A stretch of 64,000 nt of DNA, taken from Dehalococcoidia bacterium. GTDB taxonomy: Bacteria > Chloroflexota > Dehalococcoidia > Lucifugimonadales > Australimonadaceae. Positions within the stretch are counted from its first letter, which is position 1. Every line of letters begins with the position of its first letter. Made by a program: the position numbers and the translations under genes. The notes below the pieces were generated by a model, which worked only from the letters and a program-made list of their open reading frames with translations, searched no databases and was not told the origin of the DNA. Shown here piece by piece: positions 9,923 to 62,805 of this stretch. The stretch covers positions 1,754,737 to 1,818,736 of the forward strand of contig OZ252105.1 of assembly GCA_965248455.1 (NCBI GenBank), read 5' to 3'.

Positions 9923-9948
9923 CCTGTCACCTGAGAGTGCCGCGTCGC

Positions 9949-11850
9949 CTATCCGGCTGCGGCTTCCCGATTCCTCTGCGGCGACGCTCCTGGGAAGAAG
10001 GCAGTCAGGATCTGCTGGACGATACCCTCTGCGTCCAGCTCCAACCGGTGCCTCTGAGCAGCCGCAGTGCTGTGCTCGATGAAAGAGTCAGGGAAGCCGA
10101 TGCGGTGAACCGACACATCCTCCATCCCAGCCTCGGCAAGCGCCTCGAGCACGGCGGAGCCGAACCCTCCAGCCAGCACGTTCTCTTCCACGGTAACGAT
10201 GCGCCGCGTGCTGCGGGCCGCGTCCAGCAGCAGTTCAGTGTCGAGAGGCTTCACGAAGAGCGGGTTCACGACGCCGCATACGATGCCGTACTCGGCGAGC
10301 TTGTCCGCCGCTTCCACAGCCGCGCTGCCCGGCTTGCCCAGAGCGAAGATAACGACATCGCGCCCCTCCCTGACCACCGCGCCGCGTCCGAGCGGCAGCT
10401 GCCGCAGGTTCTTGTCGAGCGGCGCGCCGGTGGCCGCGCCCCTCGGTATGCGGATGGCGAAGGGGCCCGGGTGCTTGTACGCGGTGTAGATGAGATGCTG
10501 CAGGTCGTTCTCGTCCATCGGAACCGCAACGATTGCGTTGGGGATGCACCGCAGGTACGAGATATCGAACGCGCCGTGGTGCGTCTTGCCGTCCTCGCCA
10601 ACGATACCGGCCCGATCGGCGATCAGCGTCACGGGCAGGTTCTGTAGGCAAACGTCATGCACGATCTGATCGAACGCCCGCTGGAGGAAGGTGGAGTAGA
10701 TCGAGACGAAGGGATGGAGGCCGGAGGAGGCCATGCCCGCCGCCATGCTGACGGCATGCTGCTCCGCGATGCCCACGTCGAAGACTCTGCTGGGGAACTC
10801 GTGCCGCACTTCCTCCAGCCCCGTGCCTTCGAGCATCGCCGCGGAGATACCGACGACGGATTCGTCGTCGCGCATGAGGCGCTGAATGGTCTGCGCGAAC
10901 ACCTTCGAGTAGGTGGGCGCTCCCGTCGAGGCCCCCAGAGGCGAACTTGGCTGGTGAAATCTGATGGGGTCGTCCTCGGCTGGCTCGTAGCCGTGCCCCT
11001 TGTGCGTCACAACGTGGATCAGAGGGACGGAGCCGGTGGGTATTCTGGCTTGCCGGAGCGTCTCTTCGAGCTGCTTGATATCGTGGCCGTCCACGGGACC
11101 GAGGTATTGGAATCCCAACTCGGTCCAGAACGTGGTGGGCACGATGATGCTGTCCAGCCCGCCACTGAACCTCTTGACGAGCCGGTAAACCATGTCGCCC
11201 GTAGGCACCCTCTTCGATAGCGCCTTCATGCGCCCGATCATCGCCTGGTACTCGGGGTGAGTGAGCACGCGTTTGCGCCAGTTGGTGAGGAAGCCGATGT
11301 TCTCGGAGATGGACATGCCGTTGTCGTTCAGAACGACAACGAACTTCTCCGGGTTGAGATGCACGATATTGTTCAGCGCCTCGAAGCTCGAGCCTGACGT
11401 CATCGCCCCGTCGCCCACCACCGCGATGGTCCAGGAGTCCGCCTTCCGGTTCGCCGCGCCTTGCGCTATGCCCAGAGCTATCGAAAGGCCCGTGCCGGCG
11501 TGCCCTGCCGCGAGAGTGTCATGTGGGCTTTCGCTCGGTTCCCCGAACCCGGACAGCCCGCCCTCCAGGCGGATGGCCTGGAACTCGTCGCGCCGCCCCG
11601 TCACCAGCTTGTGCGTGTAGCACTGGTTGGTCGTGTCCCAGACGATGCGGTCGATGGGGCTGTCGAAAACGCGGTGGAGCGCCAGCGTAATCTCAACGAC
11701 CCCCAGGTTCGACGCTAGGTGGCCGCCGCGCTCGGTTATCACAGAGATGATGGTGTCTCGAACCTCTTGCGCAACCTGAACCAGCTCCGCTCGAGTCAGA
11801 GCCTTCAGGTCGCTCGGTGCATCGATCTGGTCCAACAGACGGCTTACCAT
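9949..11850 (-). CDS. dxs: 1-deoxy-D-xylulose-5-phosphate synthase
   Basis: 633 aa. The N-terminus LLDQIDAPSDLKAL..., the GHAGTGLS TPP-binding region and the overall length are typical of Dxs. Confidence 0.95.
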   Translation of the reverse strand: MVSRLLDQIDAPSDLKALTRAELVQVAQEVRDTIISVITERGGHLASNLGVVEITLALHRVFDSPIDRIVWDTTNQCYTHKLVTGRRDEFQAIRLEGGLSGFGEPSESPHDTLAAGHAGTGLSIALGIAQGAANRKADSWTIAVVGDGAMTSGSSFEALNNIVHLNPEKFVVVLNDNGMSISENIGFLTNWRKRVLTHPEYQAMIGRMKALSKRVPTGDMVYRLVKRFSGGLDSIIVPTTFWTELGFQYLGPVDGHDIKQLEETLRQARIPTGSVPLIHVVTHKGHGYEPAEDDPIRFHQPSSPLGASTGAPTYSKVFAQTIQRLMRDDESVVGISAAMLEGTGLEEVRHEFPSRVFDVGIAEQHAVSMAAGMASSGLHPFVSIYSTFLQRAFDQIVHDVCLQNLPVTLIADRAGIVGEDGKTHHGAFDISYLRCIPNAIVAVPMDENDLQHLIYTAYKHPGPFAIRIPRGAATGAPLDKNLRQLPLGRGAVVREGRDVVIFALGKPGSAAVEAADKLAEYGIVCGVVNPLFVKPLDTELLLDAARSTRRIVTVEENVLAGGFGSAVLEALAEAGMEDVSVHRIGFPDSFIEHSTAAAQRHRLELDAEGIVQQILTAFFPGASPQRNREAAAG

Positions 11851-11890
11851 GTGAGGATCTCCTTATGGAGTGTCGGCTGCGACCCTGGCT

Positions 11891-12178
11891 TCACCATTTC
11901 GAGGACTCTTCCGAGTAAACGTGGTCGGGCAATGAGTAGCGGATTCCCTCCTCGTCGTACAGTGCAGAATCGAGCAAGGACGTGAATCTGCTGAAGTTGG
12001 TATCTTCGCGGCGGGTCCGAAGCAGCTTGCTCAGGATCTCGCCATAACGATTTTGCAGCTTGAACCACGGGACAGCGCCAAAGGAGGACAAAGGCGGATA
12101 TTCCAGTGCATTCGCAGTCTTATTTCCGATGAGTCCGCGGGAGACGCGGGCGCTGATCCGAGCCAGACGTTCCGTCAT
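11891..12178 (-). CDS. Hypothetical protein (95 aa)
   Basis: ORF 11891..12241 trimmed to MTERLARIS..., which is preceded by GGGAGG. Local GC is lower than the surroundings. No recognisable domain. Confidence 0.4.
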   Translation of the reverse strand: MTERLARISARVSRGLIGNKTANALEYPPLSSFGAVPWFKLQNRYGEILSKLLRTRREDTNFSRFTSLLDSALYDEEGIRYSLPDHVYSEESSKW

Positions 12179-12297
12179 AGGGCAGTCCTCCCGTCTCCTT
12201 ATAACTGAGGCCGTTCCCAAGTACCGGAGGTATCGCTCCAACTACGCAGTCCCGCAATAATAGCACGCCGCCTGTCTCGCAGTGTCCAGCCAACAGA

Positions 12298-12433
12298 GCG
12301 ACAAACGCCCATTGCGCCGACGCCGCGCCAGCCCATACAGTGGTTGGGCGCGTCGTTACGACGAAATCGCCCCGTCGTTCCCGCGAAGGCGGGAACCTCG
12401 CCCTCGGCCCCATCGCCCGCATAGACGAGAGGC
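12298..12433 (+). repeat. A-H element copy (promoter-like module A plus hairpin H) feeding into the tRNA-like array
   Basis: GCGACAAACGCCCATTGCGCCGACGCCGCGCCAGCCCATACAGTGG, with TTGCGC at 12312-12317, a 17-18 bp spacer and ATACAG/TACAGT at 12335-12341. Hairpin GTTCCCGC-GAAG-GCGGGAAC at 12377-12396. Ends in GACGAGAGG, where the iterons start in other copies. Confidence 0.8.
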
Positions 12434-12436
12434 TGT

Positions 12437-12508
12437 GGGCATTAGCTCAGTCAGTTAGAGCGTCGCGTCCACATCGCGGAAGCCAGAGGTTCGAGTCCCT
12501 ACCGCCCA
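12437..12508 (+). pseudogene. Degenerate tRNA-like sequence (anticodon-loop TCCACAT, Val-CAC-like)
   Basis: The D-arm GCTC-AGTCAGTTA-GAGC is intact. Defects: a 1-nt deletion in the 5' acceptor strand, acceptor mismatches, C at position 33, and the same aberrant T-arm as the other copies. No TATACT promoter in front. Confidence 0.4.
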
Positions 12509-12692
12509 TCACCGCTATCGGCCCAGGACTCCTGACCCCTGCGCTGCGGTTCAATTCCGCCTTCGAGTGCAACAACGGGACTCCGGCAGCGACGTACCAG
12601 CCTGAGCCGAAGCGAAGGTCAGCGGCTCTTCTCCCTCCGAACATCACGGGGCACGGAGGCCGAGCCTCAGCAGACATGCGGACGTGAACCGC

Positions 12693-12722
12693 TGGACTGC
12701 CCTGCGAGGCCAACCCTATACT
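12693..12722 (+). promoter_or_regulatory. Putative promoter of tRNA-like copy 2 (TGGACT-N18-TATACT)
   Basis: TATACT at 12717-12722, 11 nt upstream of the tRNA-like 5' end. The same module precedes copy 3. Confidence 0.35.
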
Positions 12723-12733
12723 CGAAAGACTGT

Positions 12734-12806
12734 GTGCGATTGGCCCAGCTGGCTAGAGCGTCGCGTTCACATCGCGGAGGCCAGAGGTTCGAGTCCCTAT
12801 CGCCCA
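12734..12806 (+). tRNA. tRNA-like gene, anticodon CAC (Val), non-canonical T-arm
   Basis: Manual cloverleaf. Acceptor GTGCGAT/ATCGCCC pairs 6 of 7 (U2-C71 mismatch). U8, A14, G18G19 and A21 are present. Anticodon stem TCGCG/CGCGG with loop TTCACAT. The T-loop TTCGAGT has only 4 nt (CCCT) on the 3' side of the stem, which requires a bulged A51. Confidence 0.5.
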
Positions 12807-12990
12807 TCACCGCTATCGGCTCAGGGCACCTGACCCCTGCGCTACGGTTCAATCGTGCCTTCGAGTGCAACGAGGGGATCCCGACAGCGACGTACCGTCC
12901 TGAGCCGAAGCGAAGGTCAGCGGCTCTTCTCCCTCCGAACATCACGGGGCACGGAGGCCAAGCCTCAACAGACATGTGGACGTGAACCGC

Positions 12991-13020
12991 TGGACTGCCT
13001 CGCGGGGCCAACCCTATACT
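12991..13020 (+). promoter_or_regulatory. Putative promoter of tRNA-like copy 3 (TGGACT-N18-TATACT)
   Basis: TGGACT at 12991-12996 and TATACT at 13015-13020. Confidence 0.35.
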
Positions 13021-13031
13021 CGAAAGACTGT

Positions 13032-13107
13032 GCGCGGTTGGTTCAGTTGGTTAGAGCGTCGCGTTCATATCGCGGAGGTCGGCGGTTCGAGTCCCTACCG
13101 CCCGCCA
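13032..13107 (+). tRNA. tRNA-like gene, anticodon CAT (Met/Ile2-type), encoded CCA, non-canonical T-arm
   Basis: Acceptor GCGCGGT/ACCGCCC pairs 6 of 7 (C2-C71). Anticodon loop TTCATAT. T-arm GGCGG-TTCGAGT-CCCT again needs a bulge (C51). G73 is followed by CCA. Confidence 0.5.
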
Positions 13108-13156
13108 CTTCCAGCCTAAGACAGTCGTGGAATTCAACCCAAGTGGAGGCAAATAT

Positions 13157-14019
13157 ATGTCCATCGATGATAAATTGAATAGTATCTCCACTCTAATCGA
13201 GGTAACCACGAGCACTGGTACTTTTCGGGGAACGGGGTTCTTCTACAATCAGTATGCGCCCACGGACAAACAGGGGCTTCAATACCGTCACATTGACGCA
13301 ATGTGGGTTGTGACCAATCGTCACGTATTGCTGCCCGGGCAGCAGGGTGTCGCATTTGCACCTTCAGCAGTGACGCTAAATATTCGCAAACTTACTGAAT
13401 CAGGTTTTATGGTTTGGGAACCGATCAAGTTATCGGCCGAAGAAGTCGAGACCCTTGCACGGTTTCATCCAAATAGGGCTGTAGATGTCGCCGCCATCAA
13501 TATCCTGGATCACTTTATTGAACGGTTCAATTCCAGTGATAAATACGTCGCGCCACATGCGCTTTCAGTTAAGGATCTCCCAGGAGACAATAGCGCAGAT
13601 ATAGAAGTGGCAAGTGACGTAATTATAGTAGGGTATCCAAGAGGCTTTTATGACAAGGTCAATCTCTTCCCCATTGTGAAGTCGGGAATCGTCGCTTCTC
13701 GTTGGGGTGTTGGTTTCGAAGGTAACCCATACTTCCTAATTGATTCCAAGCTGTTTCCAGGCTCTTCTGGGAGTGTGGTACTTTCAAAGCCTAACGATCT
13801 AATGATTAAGAACGGGCAAGTATGTATGCCGCAGAAAAGCATTTTTCGCTTTTGGGAATCTTTTCGGGTGAGCCCCAGTTTGAGGAACCTCCAGTGGAGA
13901 TCGGTGATCTCGTTGTCACACATAAGATCGGCTTTAATCTTGGAGTTGTTTGGTATGGCGAGTTGATTGAGGAGGTCATTTGCCAAGGCGTCCCTCCGAG
14001 CCAGGCATTGGCACCTTAA
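13157..14019 (+). pseudogene. Trypsin-like (S1/Trypsin_2-type) serine peptidase, frameshifted
   Basis: ORF 13127..13966 has an internal ATG at 13157 after GGAGG. It carries GTGFFY..VVTNRHV (His) and FPGSSGSVV (Ser). The reading frame switches near 13810-13835 into ORF 13822..14019 (...LLGIFSGEPQF...GVVWYGELIEEV). The region is visibly lower in GC. Confidence 0.7.
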
Positions 14020-14129
14020 GAACGGTACGCGGTGGAGCGAGCGATACCCAACCTCCACCCGATGCGCTGCTGGCACGGATCCCAGCCTCCCGCCCTCGCG
14101 GACGCGACGGGTTCGCCGAGCGCAATCCT

Positions 14130-14488
14130 GCGACAAACGCCCATTGCGCCGTCGCCGCGCCAGCCCTTACAGTGGTCGTATGCGTCGTTACGACGAAGGC
14201 ATATCGTCGTTCCCGCGAAGGCGGGGACCTCGCATCCCTGCCCCACGCAGACGAGAGGAATGAGACTGAATGAAACTAAATGAGACTGTTTTAAAAGTTC
14301 GTCACTCCTGGCCACTCGTGATGAAGCCAACCAAGGCCACAGCGAGGCCACGCTGGCTCAGCGCGTACGAGTGAACGGAGACCCAAACGAGACCACCCCG
14401 GCCTCATTTTCAGCCTCCCGACTAGGAGTGAATGGGGACAGATAGAGCCAAATGAGTCCTTGATTTGAAATTTACCCCTGAGGCGGCC
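14130..14488 (+). repeat. Complete A-H-B-C element (copy R1)
   Basis: Module A is 14130-14200, with TTGCGC at 14144-14149, N17, and TTACAG at 14167-14172. H hairpin at 14209-14228. Iterons AATGAGACTG / AATGAAACTA / AATGAGACTG at 14259-14288. TTTTAAAAGTTCGTCACTCCTGGCCACTC at 14289-14317. Module C runs to GAGGCGGCC at 14488. Confidence 0.9.
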
Positions 14489-14544
14489 CCCTACAGGTCC
14501 TTTCTCCCTCGGAGGACGGCTAAGATGAGAGTGAAGCCCCCAGC

Positions 14545-14610
14545 GCGTCTACGAGAGGAATGATCGGAAATGAGAGGAAATGAGAGGAAATTAAAAGTTT
14601 GCCACTCCTG
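14545..14610 (+). repeat. Solo B module 38 bp upstream of the enolase-superfamily gene
   Basis: CTACGAGAGG, then iterons AATGATCGGA / AATGAGAGGA / AATGAGAGGA (14559-14588), then AATTAAAAGTTTGCCACTCCTG. Confidence 0.85.
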
Positions 14611-14647
14611 AAAGCCCCGGAAGCGCTATCTCCGAAGGAACACCACC

Positions 14648-15745
14648 ATGAAGATCACCCACGTCGAACCGATCCTAGTCGCCCTCCCCTATGAGGACGG
14701 CGGCCCTGAACGAGAGACGACGCCCGGCCACAGCAGCGAGACCGTCCTTTCGCTGTTCGTCAAGGTCGAGACGGACGAGGGCGTCACCGGTTGGGGAGAG
14801 GCCTTCAGCTTCGCCACCGTGCCGGTCACCATCCCCGCCATCGCCGATGCGGTCGGACCGCTCGCCATCGGGCAGGACCCAACCGACATCGAAGCGGTCG
14901 CCGAGGACCTGCGTCGGCGCTATCAGAACATGATGCGCGGAGGGCCGGCGCGCTTCGCGCTCTCCGCCATCGAGATCGCCATGTGGGACATCAAGGGCAA
15001 GGTCGAGGGCAAACCCATCTGGCAACTCCTGGGAGGCGCGCCTAGGGAAAGCATCGAGGCCTACGCGAGTATGTTCCGCTACCACGAACCGGCGGTCGTC
15101 AAACAGATCGCCGCATCCGCCTGGCAGCGCGGCTACAGGAAGATCAAGCTCCACGAGCGAACCGTCGAAGCAGTCGCCGCCGCCCGAGATGCCCTCGGAT
15201 CCGGCGTGCCGCTCATGGTCGACGTCAACTGCGCCTGGTACCCCGACGAAGCCATCTCAATGGCGCAGCAGATGCAGCCCTACGACATCGCCTGGCTCGA
15301 AGAGCCGGTCTCGCCCCCCGACGACTACGACGGCTTGGCGCGAGTCCGTCGCGAGGGCGGAGTCCCGATCGCCAACGGTGAGAACATCGGCAATCCCTAC
15401 GATGTCAGATGGATGGCTGCCCGGGGCGCAGTCGATATCGTGCAGCCCTCCGTGGTCAAGCACGGCGGCATCAGCGACATCATGCGCATGGTCGAGATCG
15501 CCGAAAGCGCAGGCATGCGCGCCGTCCCCCATTGCCCCTTTGTCGGCCCCGGCCTGCTGGCGACCATCCACATCATCGCCGCGATGAAGACCGAGACGCC
15601 CTGCGAACACCGCTACTGCGACCTCAAAGCAAGCCCGCTCGGCGATGCCGTCGCCGCCGTGAACGGTCGTCTCAGCGTGCCGCAGGGCCCCGGCCTCGGC
15701 GTCGACCCGGATCTCGCCATCCTGGAACGCTACCGGGTTCGATAG
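14648..15745 (+). CDS. Enolase-superfamily enzyme (mandelate racemase/muconate lactonizing enzyme family)
   Basis: 365 aa. KIKLH, the metal ligands DVN...EEP...ENI, and an N-terminal capping domain layout. Confidence 0.85.
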   Translation: MKITHVEPILVALPYEDGGPERETTPGHSSETVLSLFVKVETDEGVTGWGEAFSFATVPVTIPAIADAVGPLAIGQDPTDIEAVAEDLRRRYQNMMRGGPARFALSAIEIAMWDIKGKVEGKPIWQLLGGAPRESIEAYASMFRYHEPAVVKQIAASAWQRGYRKIKLHERTVEAVAAARDALGSGVPLMVDVNCAWYPDEAISMAQQMQPYDIAWLEEPVSPPDDYDGLARVRREGGVPIANGENIGNPYDVRWMAARGAVDIVQPSVVKHGGISDIMRMVEIAESAGMRAVPHCPFVGPGLLATIHIIAAMKTETPCEHRYCDLKASPLGDAVAAVNGRLSVPQGPGLGVDPDLAILERYRVR

Positions 15746-20818: not shown

Positions 20819-21199
20819 GGCCGCCTCAGGAGTGAAATTTCAAATAGGGGACTCATTTGGCTCTATTTGGCTCCATTCACTCCTAGCCGGGAGGCTGAAA
20901 ATGAGGCCGGGGTGGTCTCGTTCTGCTTTCCGGTCACTCGTACGCGCTGAGCCAGCGTGGCCTCGCTGTGGCCTCGTTTGGCCTCGGTTACGGATCCGTA
21001 GGCGGGGCTGGGAGTGGCCAAGAGTGGCGAAACTTTTAAAACGGTCTCATTTAGTCTCATTCAGTCTCATTCCTCTCGTCTACGCGGGCCAAGGATGCGA
21101 GGTTCCTGTCTTCGCGGGAACGACGAGGGGCCTTCGCCGTAACGACGCACACAACCACTGTAAGGGCTGGCGCGGCGACGGCGCAATGGGCAATTGTCG
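20819..21199 (-). repeat. Complete A-H-B-C element (copy R2), inverted relative to R1
   Basis: On the plus strand the order is C (20819-20995), B core GAGTGGCCAAGAGTGGCGAAACTTTTAAAA, iterons 21042-21071 (reverse complement AATGAGACTG / AATGAGACTA / AATGAGACCG), H at about 21095-21125, then A to 21199. Reverse complement of TTACAG at 21158-21163 and of TTGCGC at 21181-21186. Confidence 0.9.
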
Positions 21200-22805: not shown

Positions 22806-22960
22806 GCGACAACAGCCTATTGCGCCGTTGACACTTCAACCTTTACCATCATTTGCATACGTCAGCCTGCCGCGCGGGCGGAACCTCGCATCACGAGGAA
22901 ACGGAACGAAATGGAACTGAATGGAACCAATTTAACAGTTTGCCACTCCTACGCACTCCT
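22806..22960 (+). repeat. A-H-B element copy (divergent)
   Basis: GCGACAACAGCCTATTGCGCC (TTGCGC at 22820-22825)...TTTACCA. Hairpin-like CCTGCCGCGCGGGCGGAACCTCGC. Iterons AACGGAACGA / AATGGAACTG / AATGGAACCA at 22900-22929. ATTTAACAGTTTGCCACTCC. Confidence 0.8.
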
Positions 22961-23181
22961 GAGAGTCTCACCACGCGTGGAATCGCATAGCAATGAGCAA
23001 GAACGAGCACGAGCTTCAGCAGGCGCGGGAATGGCCCCTTGTCTCTATCGTGTCCCTTCCAGAACGGATCCGGGTGCGGCACGAAACATCGGGCGCGTCG
23101 ACCTCAGCGAGGATACCCTGCGCGAGATGCGAGACGCAGGGCGACCGTGATCGTCGTCAGCCCGCGCGACGGGAGCGACCC

Positions 23182-30969: not shown

Positions 30970-31345
30970 TGGCCAGGCGTGTGAGGGAGTGAAACCTCTG
31001 TCTCATTTTGATTCATTCTGATTCATTTTTTCTTATCCGCAAGGCGAGGAGCGGGACGGTTCGCAAGCGGCCCTCCGCCCAGGCAGAGGGCCTCCCAACC
31101 AAAGGGATGCGTCGTTCCCGCGCAGGCGGGAACGACGGAGGGCGTTCTGCTCAGCCTCTCGTTCATTTCTGTTGCTATCCCGCTTTTGGTACGGCTGTCA
31201 GGAATGCGTAGGAGTCGCAAACTTTTTATTTGGTTCCATTTGCTTCCATTTCGTCCCATTTCTACCGTATGCACGGGGCCTGCACGGGGAATAACTAACG
31301 TATGCAAACAATGTAGGGGTTGGCGCGACGATGGGGCAATGGGCA
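30970..31345 (-). repeat. Stacked element copies: B (30970-31030), H (31111-31136), B (31211-31265), A (31285-31345)
   Basis: Reverse-complement iterons AATGAATCAG / AATGAATCAA / AATGAGACAG at 30998-31027. Hairpin GTCGTTCCCGC-GCAG-GCGGGAACGAC. Reverse-complement iterons AATGGGACGA / AATGGAAGCA / AATGGAACCA at 31231-31260, next to AATAAAAAGTTTGCGACTCC. Module A reads GCGACAGATGCCCATTGCCCC...CCTACATTG. Confidence 0.8.
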
Positions 31346-31388
31346 TCTGTCGCAGATACGTTGAGGCCGTGATTACAGACAGCCCTTC

Positions 31389-32129
31389 GTGGGTTTCTCC
31401 GCTATGCTCAAGGAGACCTTTGCATCCAGCGCAGGCTATCCTCTGTCTCTCATCCTGTTCGTAGGCGGTACTATGCTGCGACCCACCGACGCCCTGCCGA
31501 CGTACCTCCGCGATTACCGCGAGATGCGCCATAGCCACGACCGCGACCTCCTTGGCGTGTTCAGAGCAGTCCGCGACCTCATCGGCGTCCAGCGCGTCGT
31601 CTATCCCGGCAGCTACGTACACCTCACTCCGTCGCTAGTGTTCCCGCGCGTGTGCTACGTGGACTCGGTCAAGGGATTCGGCGCCGCTATGGAGTCCGGC
31701 GACCTACCCGCGTGGCTCGACGCACACAAGGAGTACGCGGAGCAGGTCAAGGTTACCGCAGTCGAGGCCGCCTACGATCGGCTCCCGTCCACGCTGCTCG
31801 CGGGATTCGGCCTGATGATCTCGCTCAACGCGGGCGCCATCTCTCAAGAGTGCAAGCCGCTGCTGGCTGCTGGCTCTCACCTCCTCGCAAACGACGGCCA
31901 CTACGACGCAGCCCGCGCCCACGTGGACGCCGACTACACCCTCGTAGCAGCACTCAGCGCCGACGGCGCCGTCGAAACGGGCGAGGAAGCGTTGCGCGGG
32001 TACTTCGTCAGCAAACAGGGGCAGCCGCTGACACGCGAGATGCTGGCTGAGAATGCGCAGCGCTCCCCAAGCAAGGCTCGGTACAAGACGGCCCGCACGG
32101 CGGATGCTTTCCTGTTCCGGTTCAAGTAG
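31389..32129 (+). CDS. Hypothetical protein (start uncertain; MLRPTDALPTYL at 31473 is an alternative)
   Basis: 246-aa ORF with coding-like composition. No motif I can name. Confidence 0.45.
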   Translation: MGFSAMLKETFASSAGYPLSLILFVGGTMLRPTDALPTYLRDYREMRHSHDRDLLGVFRAVRDLIGVQRVVYPGSYVHLTPSLVFPRVCYVDSVKGFGAAMESGDLPAWLDAHKEYAEQVKVTAVEAAYDRLPSTLLAGFGLMISLNAGAISQECKPLLAAGSHLLANDGHYDAARAHVDADYTLVAALSADGAVETGEEALRGYFVSKQGQPLTREMLAENAQRSPSKARYKTARTADAFLFRFK

Positions 32130-37320: not shown

Positions 37321-37563
37321 TTAGCCCTGCATCACCGGCGCGGCCTCTATAGCCTGTGCGAGCTCCTCGCCGAACCGGCGCGCGCCCGCCGCGAGCGCGT
37401 CACGCTCCGCTGCGGTCAGGCCATCCGGCGCAGCCTTGCGCACGGCTTTCACCAGCCGCGCGCCGCTCTGCAGCACGTCCACGGCTTCCGGCGCCAGCCG
37501 GTACAGGTCGCTCACGACGCCGGCGGCACGCAATCCCACTCTCACTGCTTCCACGACCCGCAT
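37321..37563 (-). CDS. Hypothetical small protein (80 aa) between protease and capsid
   Basis: AAGGAGGAG RBS. Ala/Arg-rich and helical-looking. Confidence 0.4.
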   Translation of the reverse strand: MRVVEAVRVGLRAAGVVSDLYRLAPEAVDVLQSGARLVKAVRKAAPDGLTAAERDALAAGARRFGEELAQAIEAAPVMQG

Positions 37564-37653
37564 CGCTCTCTCCTCCTTCTTTCTCTTTCCTGTGTTCTGC
37601 TGACGAAAACCGGCGCTCCGGCGCTCCCGTCCTGTGCAGGAGCGGCGAGGCTG

Positions 37654-37757
37654 CCAGGAGTGGCCAGGCGTGGCGAACTTTTAATTTCCGCTCATTTCCG
37701 CTCATTCGCCCGAACCTTCACCCTCTCCCTCGCCTGGATTCCAGCCTCCGCTGGAAT
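37654..37757 (-). repeat. H-B element copy inside the phage head module
   Basis: Hairpin ATTCCAGC-CTCC-GCTGGAAT at 37738-37757. Reverse-complement iterons AATGAGCGGA x2 at 37687-37706. Reverse complement reads AATTAAAAGTTCGCCACGCCTGGCCACTCCTGG. Confidence 0.8.
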
Positions 37758-50831: not shown

Positions 50832-51084
50832 CGACGACAACGGCCCCTTGTCCCAGCGCCGCGCCGCCCCCTACATTGTCTACATGCGCCGTCCGGCACA
50901 GGCTCGCCAGCGACCTACCCCGTCCCCGGATGGCCGATCCGCAACCAGCGCCACACGAGGCCGGAAATGAGGCACCTCTCAGTCCGCGTACGAGTGAACG
51001 GAGCGCAGAACGAGGCCACCCTGGCCTCATTTCCGGTTCGCGGCCAGGAGTAAACAAGGCCAAATAGGGCCAGGGTTTGGGGGG
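50832..51084 (+). repeat. A-C element copy (no B module) just upstream of the 23S promoter
   Basis: TTGTCC at 50848-50853, N18, TACATT at 50872-50877. Module C reads ...CGCGTACGAGTGAACGGAGCGCAGAACGAGGCCACCCTGGCCTCATTTCC...GGAGTAAACAAGGCCAAATAGGGCC. Confidence 0.75.
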
Positions 51085-51256: not shown

Positions 51257-51285
51257 TTGACAAGCCCCGGCAGGGTGCCTATACT
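51257..51285 (+). promoter_or_regulatory. Strong sigma70-type promoter of the 23S rRNA unit (TTGACA-N17-TATACT)
   Basis: TTGACA at 51257-51262 and TATACT at 51280-51285, about 185 nt upstream of the mature 23S 5' end. Confidence 0.7.
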
Positions 51286-51468: not shown

Positions 51469-54461
<2,993 letters not shown>

Positions 54462-54538
54462 ACTCTTAGGTTTCCTCTGCTCGCTCGATTTCCCTTGTTA
54501 GCGTGCAAACGCTTTCCCTCCTTTCCTATGTCATCCGT

Positions 54539-54613
54539 TGCGGGGTGGAGCAGTGGCAGCTCGTCGGGCTCATAACCCGAAGGTCCCAGGTTCGAGTCCT
54601 GGCCCCGCTACCA
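54539..54613 (+). tRNA. Initiator tRNA-Met (CAT), encoded CCA
   Basis: Canonical cloverleaf. Three consecutive G-C pairs close the anticodon stem (GGG-CTCATAA-CCC). The 1:72 position is unpaired (U1/U72). T-arm CCAGG-TTCGAGT-CCTGG. Confidence 0.9.
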
Positions 54614-59761: not shown

Positions 59762-60892
59762 CTACGTGGAACCTACCGCCGCCGCCGTCTGACGGCGCGC
59801 CCATGCGTCGGCCTCGAACACAGCCTCGGGCGTCGCCACGTCGAACGGCTCATGCTTGTCGAGTACGTCCTGCACGATGCGGTGGATGTCTCCGAAGGCG
59901 ATGCGTCCATCGAGGAAGAGGTGCACGGCCTCCTCGTCTACCGCACTGAGCACTGCCGGGTAGCTCCGTTCCTTGCTCCCCGCCTCGATCGCTGTCGCGA
60001 AGCACGGGTAACGCGCTTCGTCCAGCGCCTCGAACGTGAGCGACGGGGTCGTGATCGGGTCGTACCGGGGCAGTGTGCCGTTGGGCAGCCGCGTCGGGTA
60101 CGCAAGAGCGACCTGGATGGGCATGCGCATATCCGGCAGGCCCATCTGTGCCTTGACCGAGCCGTCGGCGAACTCGACCATCGAGTGGATGATGCTCTGC
60201 GGGTGAACGACCACCTCTATCTGCTCGAACGGGATGTCAAAGAGCCAGCGGCTCTCGATGACCTCGAACCCCTTGTTCATCAGCGTGGAGGAGTCGATCG
60301 TGATCTTCCTGCCCATCACCCACGTGGGGTGGGCCAGCGCCTCCTTCGGCGTGACGGATGGAATCTCCGCGAGGGGGCGCGTGCGGAACGGCCCGCCTGA
60401 CGCCGTGATGATGAGCCTGCGCACCGGTTCGTCCTCGCCGCGCAGGCATTGCCATATCGCGGACGGCTCGCTGTCCACCGGCAGCACCGGAGCGCCGTAC
60501 TCGACGGCGGTGCGCATCACCAGCTCGCCGGCCATCACGACGACTTCCTTGTTCGAGAGCGCCACGGCCTTGCGCTCGCGCAGTGCGTTGAGCGTCGGCA
60601 GCAGGCCCGTGCGTCCCGTGGTGGCGACCATCACGATATCGACGTCCGGCTCCGTGACCATCGCTTCCATGGGAGTGAGCGCTGCGTTGCCCAGCACAGG
60701 CGTCAGCTTGTCCGGCGGCGCGTCCGCCCAGACCATGCGCGGCGCGAACTCCGCGATCTGCGCCGCCAGCAGGTCCAGGTTGCGCCCCGCCGAAAGCCCA
60801 ACGACGCGGAACTCGTCCGGCAGCGCGCGCACGACGTCCAGCGTCTGCGTACCGATGGAGCCGGTGGATCCAAGAACTACGAGGCCTTTCAT
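59762..60892 (-). CDS. dxr: 1-deoxy-D-xylulose 5-phosphate reductoisomerase
   Basis: 376 aa. MKGLVVLGSTGSIGTQTLDVV N-terminus. Confidence 0.95.
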   Translation of the reverse strand: MKGLVVLGSTGSIGTQTLDVVRALPDEFRVVGLSAGRNLDLLAAQIAEFAPRMVWADAPPDKLTPVLGNAALTPMEAMVTEPDVDIVMVATTGRTGLLPTLNALRERKAVALSNKEVVVMAGELVMRTAVEYGAPVLPVDSEPSAIWQCLRGEDEPVRRLIITASGGPFRTRPLAEIPSVTPKEALAHPTWVMGRKITIDSSTLMNKGFEVIESRWLFDIPFEQIEVVVHPQSIIHSMVEFADGSVKAQMGLPDMRMPIQVALAYPTRLPNGTLPRYDPITTPSLTFEALDEARYPCFATAIEAGSKERSYPAVLSAVDEEAVHLFLDGRIAFGDIHRIVQDVLDKHEPFDVATPEAVFEADAWARRQTAAAVGST

Positions 60893-60971
60893 GCGGTTAT
60901 TGTACTCGCAGCAACAGTTCGCAGTCAGAACCAGCGGGACGCACGTAACTGTTCAGCAACTGTGTTGAAAG

Positions 60972-62150
<1,179 letters not shown>

Positions 62151-62177: not shown

Positions 62178-62805
62178 GGTCAACCCCTGGCCCCATTTGG
62201 CCCTGTTCGGCCCTGTTTACTCCTAGCGGCGAGGCTGGAAATGAGGCCAGAGTGGCCTCGTTTGGCACACCGCTTACTCGTAGGCACTGTACCAGGGTGG
62301 TCCCGTTTGTGGCCACGTTGGCCTCATCATGAGTGGCCAAGAGTGGCGAAACTTTTAAATCAGTTGCATTTCGTTGCATTTCGTTGCATTCCTTGTCGTT
62401 GTTGGTTTGGGGTTCACCCCGCTGGGGGTGAACCTCACCTCATCCTCGCTTTCTCCCCTCAAGGAGACCTTGCGTAACTGTGCCTGACGGACGTAGTTCT
62501 TCCCACCCACCCGCCCAGTATGCTTGTGGGGGACACCCCCACGCCCCCGGCAGTGGGGCATCGCCCCCTCTGCACTCCCCCATTCGAGGGGCTACGCGAG
62601 CCGCCCCTATGAGTTAAGCAACGGTCCCTCAAGGGAGAAGGGATTTGCCCGCATTCGCGGGAACGACGGGTGTTTTCGCTTAAACGACGCATACAATCAA
62701 TGTAAGGGTTGGGGCGGCGACGGCGCAATGGGCAGTTGTCGTTGGTTTGGCGTTTGGGTATGGGGGCAGGGGCAGGGATGCGAGGTTCCCGCCTGCGCGG
62801 GAACG
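62178..62805 (-). repeat. Largest A-H-(insert)-B-C element copy
   Basis: On the plus strand: C at 62178-62330; B core GAGTGGCCAAGAGTGGCGAAACTTTTAAAT with iterons at 62361-62390 (reverse complement AATGCAACGA x2 / AATGCAACTG); a ~245-bp insert containing CCCTCAAGGGAGAAGGGAT hairpins; H at 62645-62672; A at 62690-62740 (reverse complement TTGCGC at 62723-62728 and TTACAT at 62700-62705); and a second H at 62778-62805. Confidence 0.85.

Follow-up and report, generated by a model that had tools for sequence, protein, structure and literature searches.

In the 64,000-nt stretch of DNA analysed here (the window), the segment at 12298-12436 belongs to a dispersed repeat whose leading part, Module A, had been read in the initial annotation as a sigma70-type promoter aimed at the next transcription unit. 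Comparison of its copies indicates that Module A forms the 5' part of a mosaic intergenic repeat that is young and lineage-specific, in which it is joined by a half-REP (repetitive extragenic palindrome; module H), a REP (module B), module C, iterons/module D and module E. The best-fitting reading, for which we put the chances at about even, is that Module A is a genuine housekeeping-sigma (sigma70-type) promoter carried by the mosaic repeat and not targeted at genes. Most likely, what it would transcribe is the mosaic repeat that carries it, a repeat of selfish or structural nature.

Copies were located with a repeat search and an iterated nhmmer profile, run over the window and over related contigs searched alongside it (labelled L013, L039 and so on). 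Seven copies were found in the window, at 12299 (+), 14131 (+), 21199 (-), 22807 (+), 31352 (-), 50835 (+) and 62741 (-), and in all seven a hexamer of the TTG type is paired with TACnnT at the positions first given for them. The spacing, originally described as 17-18 bp, needs narrowing, as the TACnnT register gives 18 nt rather than 17 and this length is found in 19 of 21 copies. A further copy that had been listed for the genes at 37563 does not exist, as that site holds an iteron/D module only (37653-37707). The segment at 12298-12436 runs GCGACAAACGCCCA-TTGCGC-(18 nt)-TACAGT, then H, B and C, with tRNA-Val(CAC) from 12436; it was correctly described as ending at GACGAGAGG (12424-12432) immediately before the tRNA. 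Its first 30 nt recur at 14144 (+) and 21186 (-) with no more than 2 mismatches, while shuffled sequences gave 0 such matches.

Module A is in every case followed by further modules in its own orientation. Module B has an 8-bp stem, a 4-nt loop and an unpaired CGTC tag, which is present on 23 of the ~32 perfect sites per 275 kb (64 strand hits). Module D is made up of GACGAGAGG, three 10-bp iterons, TTTAAAAGTT and CACTCCTGGCCACTC, and module E (~130 nt) of GAGGCCAC iterons and a terminal hairpin, GAGGCC...GGCCTC, followed by ATTTY. This hairpin is kept in all nine aligned copies with one compensatory change, and every one of the 17 intact E modules is preceded, at 120-350 nt, by a Module A facing the same way.

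Relatives of the window were reached by exact-protein look-ups, with DXS leading to L013/14 (98% identity), Dxr to L039 (97%), and the window's IS110 transposase, together with two near-identical variants, to L017-L026 and L041-L043. In ~0.3 Mb of this species-level lineage, the nhmmer profile detected 23 independent Module A loci, of which one holds a tandem array. The same profile search found no copy in relatives at 92% (L027/28, L040) or 87% (L015/16) DXS identity; thus, the family is young and confined to approximately one species. Module A was likewise absent from a conjugative element from the same samples (found via P0266), exact-pattern scans of genome, metagenome and viral collections with CCATTGCNCCNNCGNCGCNCCANCCC returned chance or coding matches only, a search of plasmids (PLSDB) gave no match, and look-ups with the window's own Dxr and with P0150 yielded nothing. 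Homologues of Dxr that share 64-80% identity with it carry the names Chloroflexi, Dehalococcoidia or SAR202, so the host is an uncultured soil Chloroflexota.

The anatomy of Module A and its evolutionary signature fit the promoter originally proposed, but the bare hexamer match is no commoner than chance. The pattern TTGnnn-N16-18-TAnnnT occurs 20 times in the window, compared with 25.8 +/- 4.7 times in shuffled sequences, and Module A accounts for seven of the 20. The departure from randomness thus lies in the repeat family and not in its match to a promoter. Within the family, mismatches to the consensus affect 20/192 cells in the hexamers (10%) and 81/288 in the spacer (28%; Fisher p = 2e-6), and only 3/96 at the key positions TTG and TA..T (p = 1e-8), although these tests treat the copies as independent and the p-values are generous, given the common descent of the copies. 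In at least five sublineages (22807, L018, L019_17259, L023_11070 and the subfamily marked by CATAGCCCC), 8-12 of the 18 spacer bases differ, and the length is held at 18 nt despite this near-free divergence. The retention of two hexamers at a fixed 18-nt distance while the sequence between them has been nearly randomised is plausibly the signature of a sigma70-type promoter.

The details within the hexamers point the same way. The -10 always starts with TAC, and 15 of the 16 copies scored for it retain the last T, while the positions that vary, 4 and 5, are those at which sigma70 tolerates change. The -35 has become TTACGY or TTGTGC in one subfamily, and TGn precedes the -10 (TTGCTACATT) in every copy whose -35 is degraded (TTACGY, TTGTGC, TTGCAC) but not in the TTGCGC copies. 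This pairing appears to be a single subfamily event, yet it is in line with promoter logic. The -10 of Module A (TACAGT or TACATT; TGcTACATT in one subfamily) resembles those of the host, where TATACT, TACAAT, TAGAAT and TACACT are found, often with TGn, as in TGcTACAAT (rpsB), TGaTATACT (rpsO) and TGaTAGAAT; complete host promoters include TGGACT-18-TATACT at tRNAs 2 and 3 and TTGAAA-17-TATAAT at the Fic gene. The -35 of Module A is weaker than the native TTGACA. A sequence resembling Module A (ACGCCCATTCG...CCGTACAGT) also lies ~40 nt upstream of the start of the Band_7 gene in L017. Furthermore, the hexamers are intact in copies that have no gene to drive (22807, L019_9769, L039_2305, L042_4815), so any function must be tied to the element and not to its neighbour.

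Several observations weigh against a promoter, the activity of which is a prediction from sequence and, as such, plausible. The match to the Escherichia coli consensus is weak (TTGCGC 3/6, TACAGT 4/6; 7/12 together), so that a consensus scan raises no flag, and the looser TTG/TAnnnT match is, as noted above, as frequent as chance would have it. The G of TTG has been lost in one subfamily, the shared descent of the copies means that the Fisher tests overstate their independence, and the six tandem 216-nt Module A units in L039 resemble satellite amplification more than selected promoters. At the other end of the unit, the E hairpin is trailed by 3-4 T only. Finally, the C at -10 position 3 and the CGACAA/GCCCA box upstream of the -35 (CGACAA is the same in 18 of 18 non-redundant copies, GCCCA nearly so) are conserved beyond what sigma70 needs, which suggests that a second protein may read the sequence.

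Module A may instead be a bipartite protein-binding site whose likeness to a promoter is incidental, bound by a protein that moves or organises the repeats, such as a recombinase, transposase or nucleoid protein; we consider this somewhat unlikely. A promoter would require neither the invariant TAC nor the whole of the invariant 20-nt box CGACAA-N2-GCCCATTGCGCC, variable islands start right after modules A and H at the CGTC tag, and Module A occurs in tandem arrays, is randomly oriented with respect to genes and has IS110 copies within 0-40 nt in L017, L019/L023 and L025. Neisserial intergenic mosaic element (NIME) arrays, the closest analogue, have moreover been proposed as recombinase substrates (PMC1797815). 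However, the repeats proved to have no candidate protein associated with them, and a binding site predicts neither the degradation of the -35 with a gained TGn nor the tolerance at -10 positions 4 and 5. Module A is also without inverted or terminal repeats: terminal inverted repeats, considered as a possible feature of the module, do not exist, and no inverted copy of it was found at the far end of the composite. Binding-site and promoter roles can in any case coexist.

A purely passive origin of the pattern was also weighed. If Module A were an inert spacer, like the repeat sequence (RS) of a NIME array, its conservation would reflect nothing other than recent descent and gene conversion. 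The restriction of the family to one species-level lineage, the 85-95% identity of many copies and the homogenisation of iterons within a copy, which indicates concerted evolution, would all suit such an origin. Recent descent cannot, however, produce a near-saturated spacer beside near-invariant boxes, at an exact length, in five sublineages, and we regard the inert spacer as very unlikely.

The promoter carried by the repeat is also preferred to a promoter that serves the adjacent genes. Six of the seven window copies do face a co-oriented unit, as first described for all but the copy at 22806, but three of those six (12299, 31352 and 50835) lie between divergent genes, a context in which either orientation faces a gene and orientation is hence uninformative; orf246 at 31389, for example, has a clear coding signature. 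The sample for this comparison was the 23 independent loci, which is small and was reached via IS110 insertions. Twelve of these loci are divergent and uninformative. Nine lie between tandem genes, where four copies face a co-oriented gene (14131, 21199, 62741, L021_3996) and five do not (22807, L019_9769, L023_9769, L023_11070, L023_15519), and two lie between convergent genes (L039_2305, L042_4815), where neither copy does. The informative contexts thus comprise four co-oriented copies versus seven that are not, and the overall count of 16/23 facing a co-oriented gene compares with 16.5 expected from context. The repeat prefers 5' intergenic DNA and shows no preference in direction across these ~0.3 Mb, contrary to the claim that its copies point at the next transcription unit.

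That Module A is the working promoter and attenuator leader of the tRNA array and of the MR_MLE, lipoprotein, amidohydrolase, 23S and dxr units, as initially annotated, is a claim that we judge quite unlikely. It does gain from the six window copies that face a co-oriented unit, from the MR_MLE gene at 14648, at which no canonical proximal promoter was seen, and from the tRNA at 12436, which has no other promoter; and a repeat that split dxr from its ancestral operon would have created the need for a new one. Against this, besides the orientation counts, the -10 mostly lies 400-600 nt from the start codon, the distance being occupied by other repeat modules, and a canonical promoter of the gene's own lies between the repeat and the gene at 23S, dxr, rpsB, rpsO, the DUF433 gene and the 2469 gene of L019. 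The 23S and dxr units of the window thus keep proximal promoters downstream of the repeat (Table 1). Moreover, the relative L040 has the same genes without the repeat. There, rpsB has an equivalent promoter (TGtTAGAAT), and dxr follows cdsA after 40 nt within an operon (9930-10010). In the lineage of the window, cdsA and dxr are separated by the repeat and by a cytochrome c gene, both of which were therefore inserted into the operon in this lineage. The position of TACAAT only 6 nt before the dxr ATG (60890-60928, -) suggests that the mRNA may be leaderless.

The attenuator part of that claim, in which the transcript would begin with mutually exclusive hairpins, did not hold when pairs were counted for the named stems in 14 aligned copies. 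In most copies, module H is no hairpin but repeats, in degenerate form and in the same direction, the 5' arm of module B (CGTCGTT-N4-CGAA); the fourth pair of its stem forms in 5/14 copies, with no compensatory change. The outer stem is 57% paired and covaries between the copies at 12298 and 14130, yet the orthologue in strain L013 no longer has it, and the alternative ACGACG/CGTCGT pairing is restricted to the same two copies. Hairpin B is better kept, with 82% of cells paired, yet here too compensatory changes are absent: substitutions accumulate in the 3' arm and none is seen in the 5' arm, CCGTCGTTCCCGCGAA. No U-tract follows B; CTCGCATCCC comes next, and no terminator-like site was reported there. 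The leader of the 12298 copy folds at -39.1 kcal/mol, near its shuffles (-34.2 +/- 3.1; z = -1.55), and its lowest-energy fold contains H and B together and not as alternatives. A search of 12250-14660 against Rfam 15 returned the three tRNAs as the only matches, even at E <= 1. A leaderless small open reading frame (ORF) starting from the ATG of ATGCGTCG was also considered and rejected, as indels between copies disrupt its frame and the start codon is missing from some of them.

If Module A does act as a promoter of the repeat, RNA polymerase would start ~7 nt past the -10, at the purine of (A/G)TGCGTCG, and the transcript would cover the repeat body up to the conserved hairpin and T-tract that end module E. 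Where the repeat body is missing, whatever lies downstream would be transcribed instead. At 12298, this would be the first tRNA-Val, for which Module A is the sole candidate promoter, since the tRNA has none of its own and only Module A lies upstream. The copies would spread with the repeat, through tandem amplification, recombination and possibly a transposition step of undefined kind, and would settle mainly in 5' intergenic DNA in either direction, while the downstream genes retain their own promoters.

A more far-reaching, and unlikely, version is that the whole A-to-E unit constitutes a self-transcribed non-coding RNA gene, composed of the Module A promoter, an iteron body and a terminator hairpin that doubles as the attachment site of integrase islands. 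Present in hundreds of copies in one species, such a unit would split operons (cdsA/dxr), bracket gene cassettes and provide a NIME-like scaffold for recombination and expression outside Neisseria. Covariation in RNA of the D-E region amounts to few compensatory pairs, in few and closely related sequences. Three tyrosine-integrase islands join module E at CGGAGTGNCAAACGAGGCCACC (L024 2937-4280, L026 8313-9680 and L019 1566-2110), so that the hairpin at the 3' end of E acts as an attachment site in several parts of the genome. The common joining point of these islands in E reads ..TTGCTGAGTCAGAANCGGAGTGGCAAACGAGGCCACC.

Mosaics of a few modules in variable combinations, as observed here, are familiar from the REPs and bacterial interspersed mosaic elements (BIMEs) of enterobacteria and from the BOX elements of pneumococcus. 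Classical REPs lie mainly downstream of genes and between convergent genes, whereas the A-B composites are mostly 5' or divergent (12/23 loci divergent, 2/23 convergent). Insertion sequences (ISs) may carry outward-facing promoters that read into adjacent DNA; the repeat resembles them as dispersed DNA with a promoter, but has neither a transposase gene nor defined ends. The closest known systems are NIME arrays in architecture and Correia elements (Correia repeat enclosed elements, CREE) as dispersed repeats that bear promoters.

In NIME arrays, dRS3 inverted repeats (ATTCCC-N8-GGGAAT) flank 50-150-bp RS units, and such arrays were stated in 2007 to be absent outside Neisseria (PMC1797815). 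With its CGTC tag and the sequence GTTCCC-N8-GGGAAC, module B takes the form of a dRS3/CGTC-1 REP, the comparison with the published consensus being one of form alone. As in NIME arrays, unrelated 50-150-bp modules are set between REPs in mosaic arrays, the length of which varies between strains (six 216-nt units in L039, one in L021) and which flank differences in gene content and collect IS elements, small repeats and integrating elements. The present arrays differ in their host, a Chloroflexota, in the fixed order and orientation of the modules (A...E) and in that one of the modules is promoter-shaped. CGTC-tagged REPs, of which module B fits the CGTC-1 class, have been described (Di Nocera et al., 2013) with Chloroflexi not among the listed hosts. 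They have an unpaired CGTC at one end, an 8-9-bp stem, a 4-5-nt loop and many copies (PMC3733652), and module B conforms with its unpaired CGTC, 8-bp stem, 4-nt loop and high copy number. Correia elements are dispersed repeats that carry or create functional sigma70 promoters (PMC2649163). They too are small and lie mostly 5' of genes, they contain sigma70 promoters, hairpins and a site of the integration host factor (IHF) type, and native promoters are often found between the element and the gene (PMC2649163). Unlike Module A, which has no inverted partner and both of its hexamers internal, CREE are miniature inverted-repeat transposable elements (MITEs) with 51-bp terminal inverted repeats and end promoters derived partly from flanking DNA.

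If Module A fires, one species would hold hundreds of extra promoters borne on repeats. Pervasive transcription, both intergenic and antisense, could arise from them, and they would supply ready promoters where operons break, as between cdsA and dxr. Biology of the NIME and Correia type, known mainly from Neisseria, would then extend to uncultured soil Chloroflexota, where the repeats would mark hot spots for the insertion of IS110, MITEs and integrase islands and for cassette exchange. The repeats also matter to annotation, as they yield spurious ORFs in public gene calls, such as a 342-aa 'gene' in L039. The features of the window discussed above and below are listed in Table 1.

Table 1. 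Coordinates of Module A, its parts, associated repeat modules and neighbouring promoters in the window
Feature	Position	Strand	Remarks
Upstream box CGACAA-N2-GCCCA, invariant	12299..12311	+	Abuts 5' side of -35-like hexamer
-35-like hexamer TTGCGC	12312..12317	+	7/96 cells differ from family consensus
Spacer, 18 nt	12318..12335	+	81/288 cells mismatched
-10-like hexamer TACAGT	12336..12341	+	Predicted start ~12348
Module H, CGTCG-TTA-CGACG	12351..12363	+	From alignment of copies
Module B, CGTC-tagged REP: CGTC / GTTCCCGC / GAAG / GCGGGAAC / CTCG	12373..12400	+	
Module C, GACGAGAGG	12424..12432	+	Here the junction to the tRNA array; iterons follow elsewhere
tRNA-Val(CAC), first of three	12436..12510	+	Only one without its own TGGACT-N18-TATACT promoter
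Module A copy	14131..14199	+	-35 at 14144, -10 at 14168; H, B, C, D+E next
Modules D+E after 14131 copy	14252..14472	+	E hairpin + ATTTTC at 14389-14411
Modules D+E after 21199 copy	20836..21077	-	E hairpin 20897-20919
Module A copy	21132..21199	-	-35 at 21186, -10 at 21162
Module A copy, TTGCGC-N18-TACCAT	22807..22869	+	Spacer wholly diverged; faces 3' end of convergent FAD-oxidase gene
Module A copy, TTGCCC-N18-TACATT	31293..31352	-	In divergent intergenic region
Module A copy, TTGTCC-N18-TACATT	50835..50898	+	Real rRNA promoter 380 nt downstream
Module E alone after 50835 copy	50956..51072	+	Hairpin from 51012
Native 23S promoter TTGACA-17-TATACT	51257..51285	+	Between repeat and 23S gene; 11/12 match
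Proximal dxr promoter CTGACT-N18-TACAAT	60899..60928	-	6 nt upstream of ATG
Modules D+E after 62741 copy	62178..62393	-	Hairpin 62237-62259
Module A copy, TTGCGC-N18-TACATT	62675..62741	-	

The array at 12436, at first called 'tRNA-like', consists of three tRNAs that score above threshold in both ARAGORN and Rfam. They are Val-CAC, Val-CAC and Met-CAT (12436-13966), 83-87% alike, with weak scores of 33-39 bits in Rfam and in 298-nt tandem units. A low-GC gene for a trypsin-like peptidase follows them, with a GC content at third codon positions (GC3) of 0.49 compared with ~0.8 in the host. This locus illustrates how the repeat bounds variable islands, which begin at the CGTC tag that follows A+H: upstream, the flank of the 12298 copy is shared with L013_6457, but the two diverge right after H at the tag, beyond which the window has the tRNA array and the trypsin-like gene, and L013 (98% DXS) has the DUF433 gene. 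On the upstream side, the MMPL and MPAB genes that lie between Module A and DXS in L013 (6458-10000) are missing from the window (11851-12297), where their place is taken by a 116-aa ORF with a doubtful coding signature (GC at the three codon positions 0.52/0.48/0.68). At 51469-54613, the 23S rRNA is followed by tRNA-Met(CAT), and no 5S or 16S was found across the 64 kb at Rfam gathering scores.

Module D occurs in the window at 14252-14310, 14552-14610, 22898-22966, 31183-31266, 37653-37707 and 62331-62393. The last 5-6 bases of its iterons differ between copies (AATGAGACTG, AATGGAACNA, AATGCAACGA, AATGAGCGGA) and are alike within a copy. D-only modules were 38-115 nt upstream of start codons in the seven cases examined. 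Reading the sequences of D as a sigma70, sigma54 or extracytoplasmic function (ECF) promoter gave no fitting register; its layout recalls an att (attachment) site, with arm sites, an IHF site and a core. Tandem arrangements are not limited to one module. Four D units stand in tandem in L013, and module order varies; in L039 (3183-4303), six tandem 216-nt units, each of Module A, REP B and a second REP-like hairpin, lie upstream of rpsB, a locus at which L021 has a single A+REP unit. It is over this array that the public gene call places the spurious ORF mentioned above.

Mobile elements are found in and around the repeats. An IS110-family element of ~1.19 kb lies at 60947-62136 (-), and its transposase is identical on at least 22 contigs. 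At seven of eight insertion sites, IS110 has the orientation of the next gene and precedes it by 30-130 nt; the left flanks share ..CGCCTCAT and often a half REP. IS110 was considered as the mover of the repeat and set aside, as its sites have only this short left-flank motif in common and Module A is near in some loci only (within 0-40 nt, as given above). The 62-kb copy of the repeat has received both IS110 and a 166-bp MITE-like insert (62463-62628, -), with inverted ends GGGACCGTTGCTTAAC / GGAGACCTTGCGTAAC. The insert is missing from the orthologous copies in L021 and L039, and also occurs in L025 at ~11100-11290; its host site is the loop of another repeat hairpin, CCCTTCTCCC-TTGA-GGGGAGAAGG. 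Elsewhere in the window, two 340-nt composites (14131-14473 and 20835-21199), 90% identical and forming an inverted pair, enclose 6.4 kb of DNA in which the genes at both edges are directed inward.

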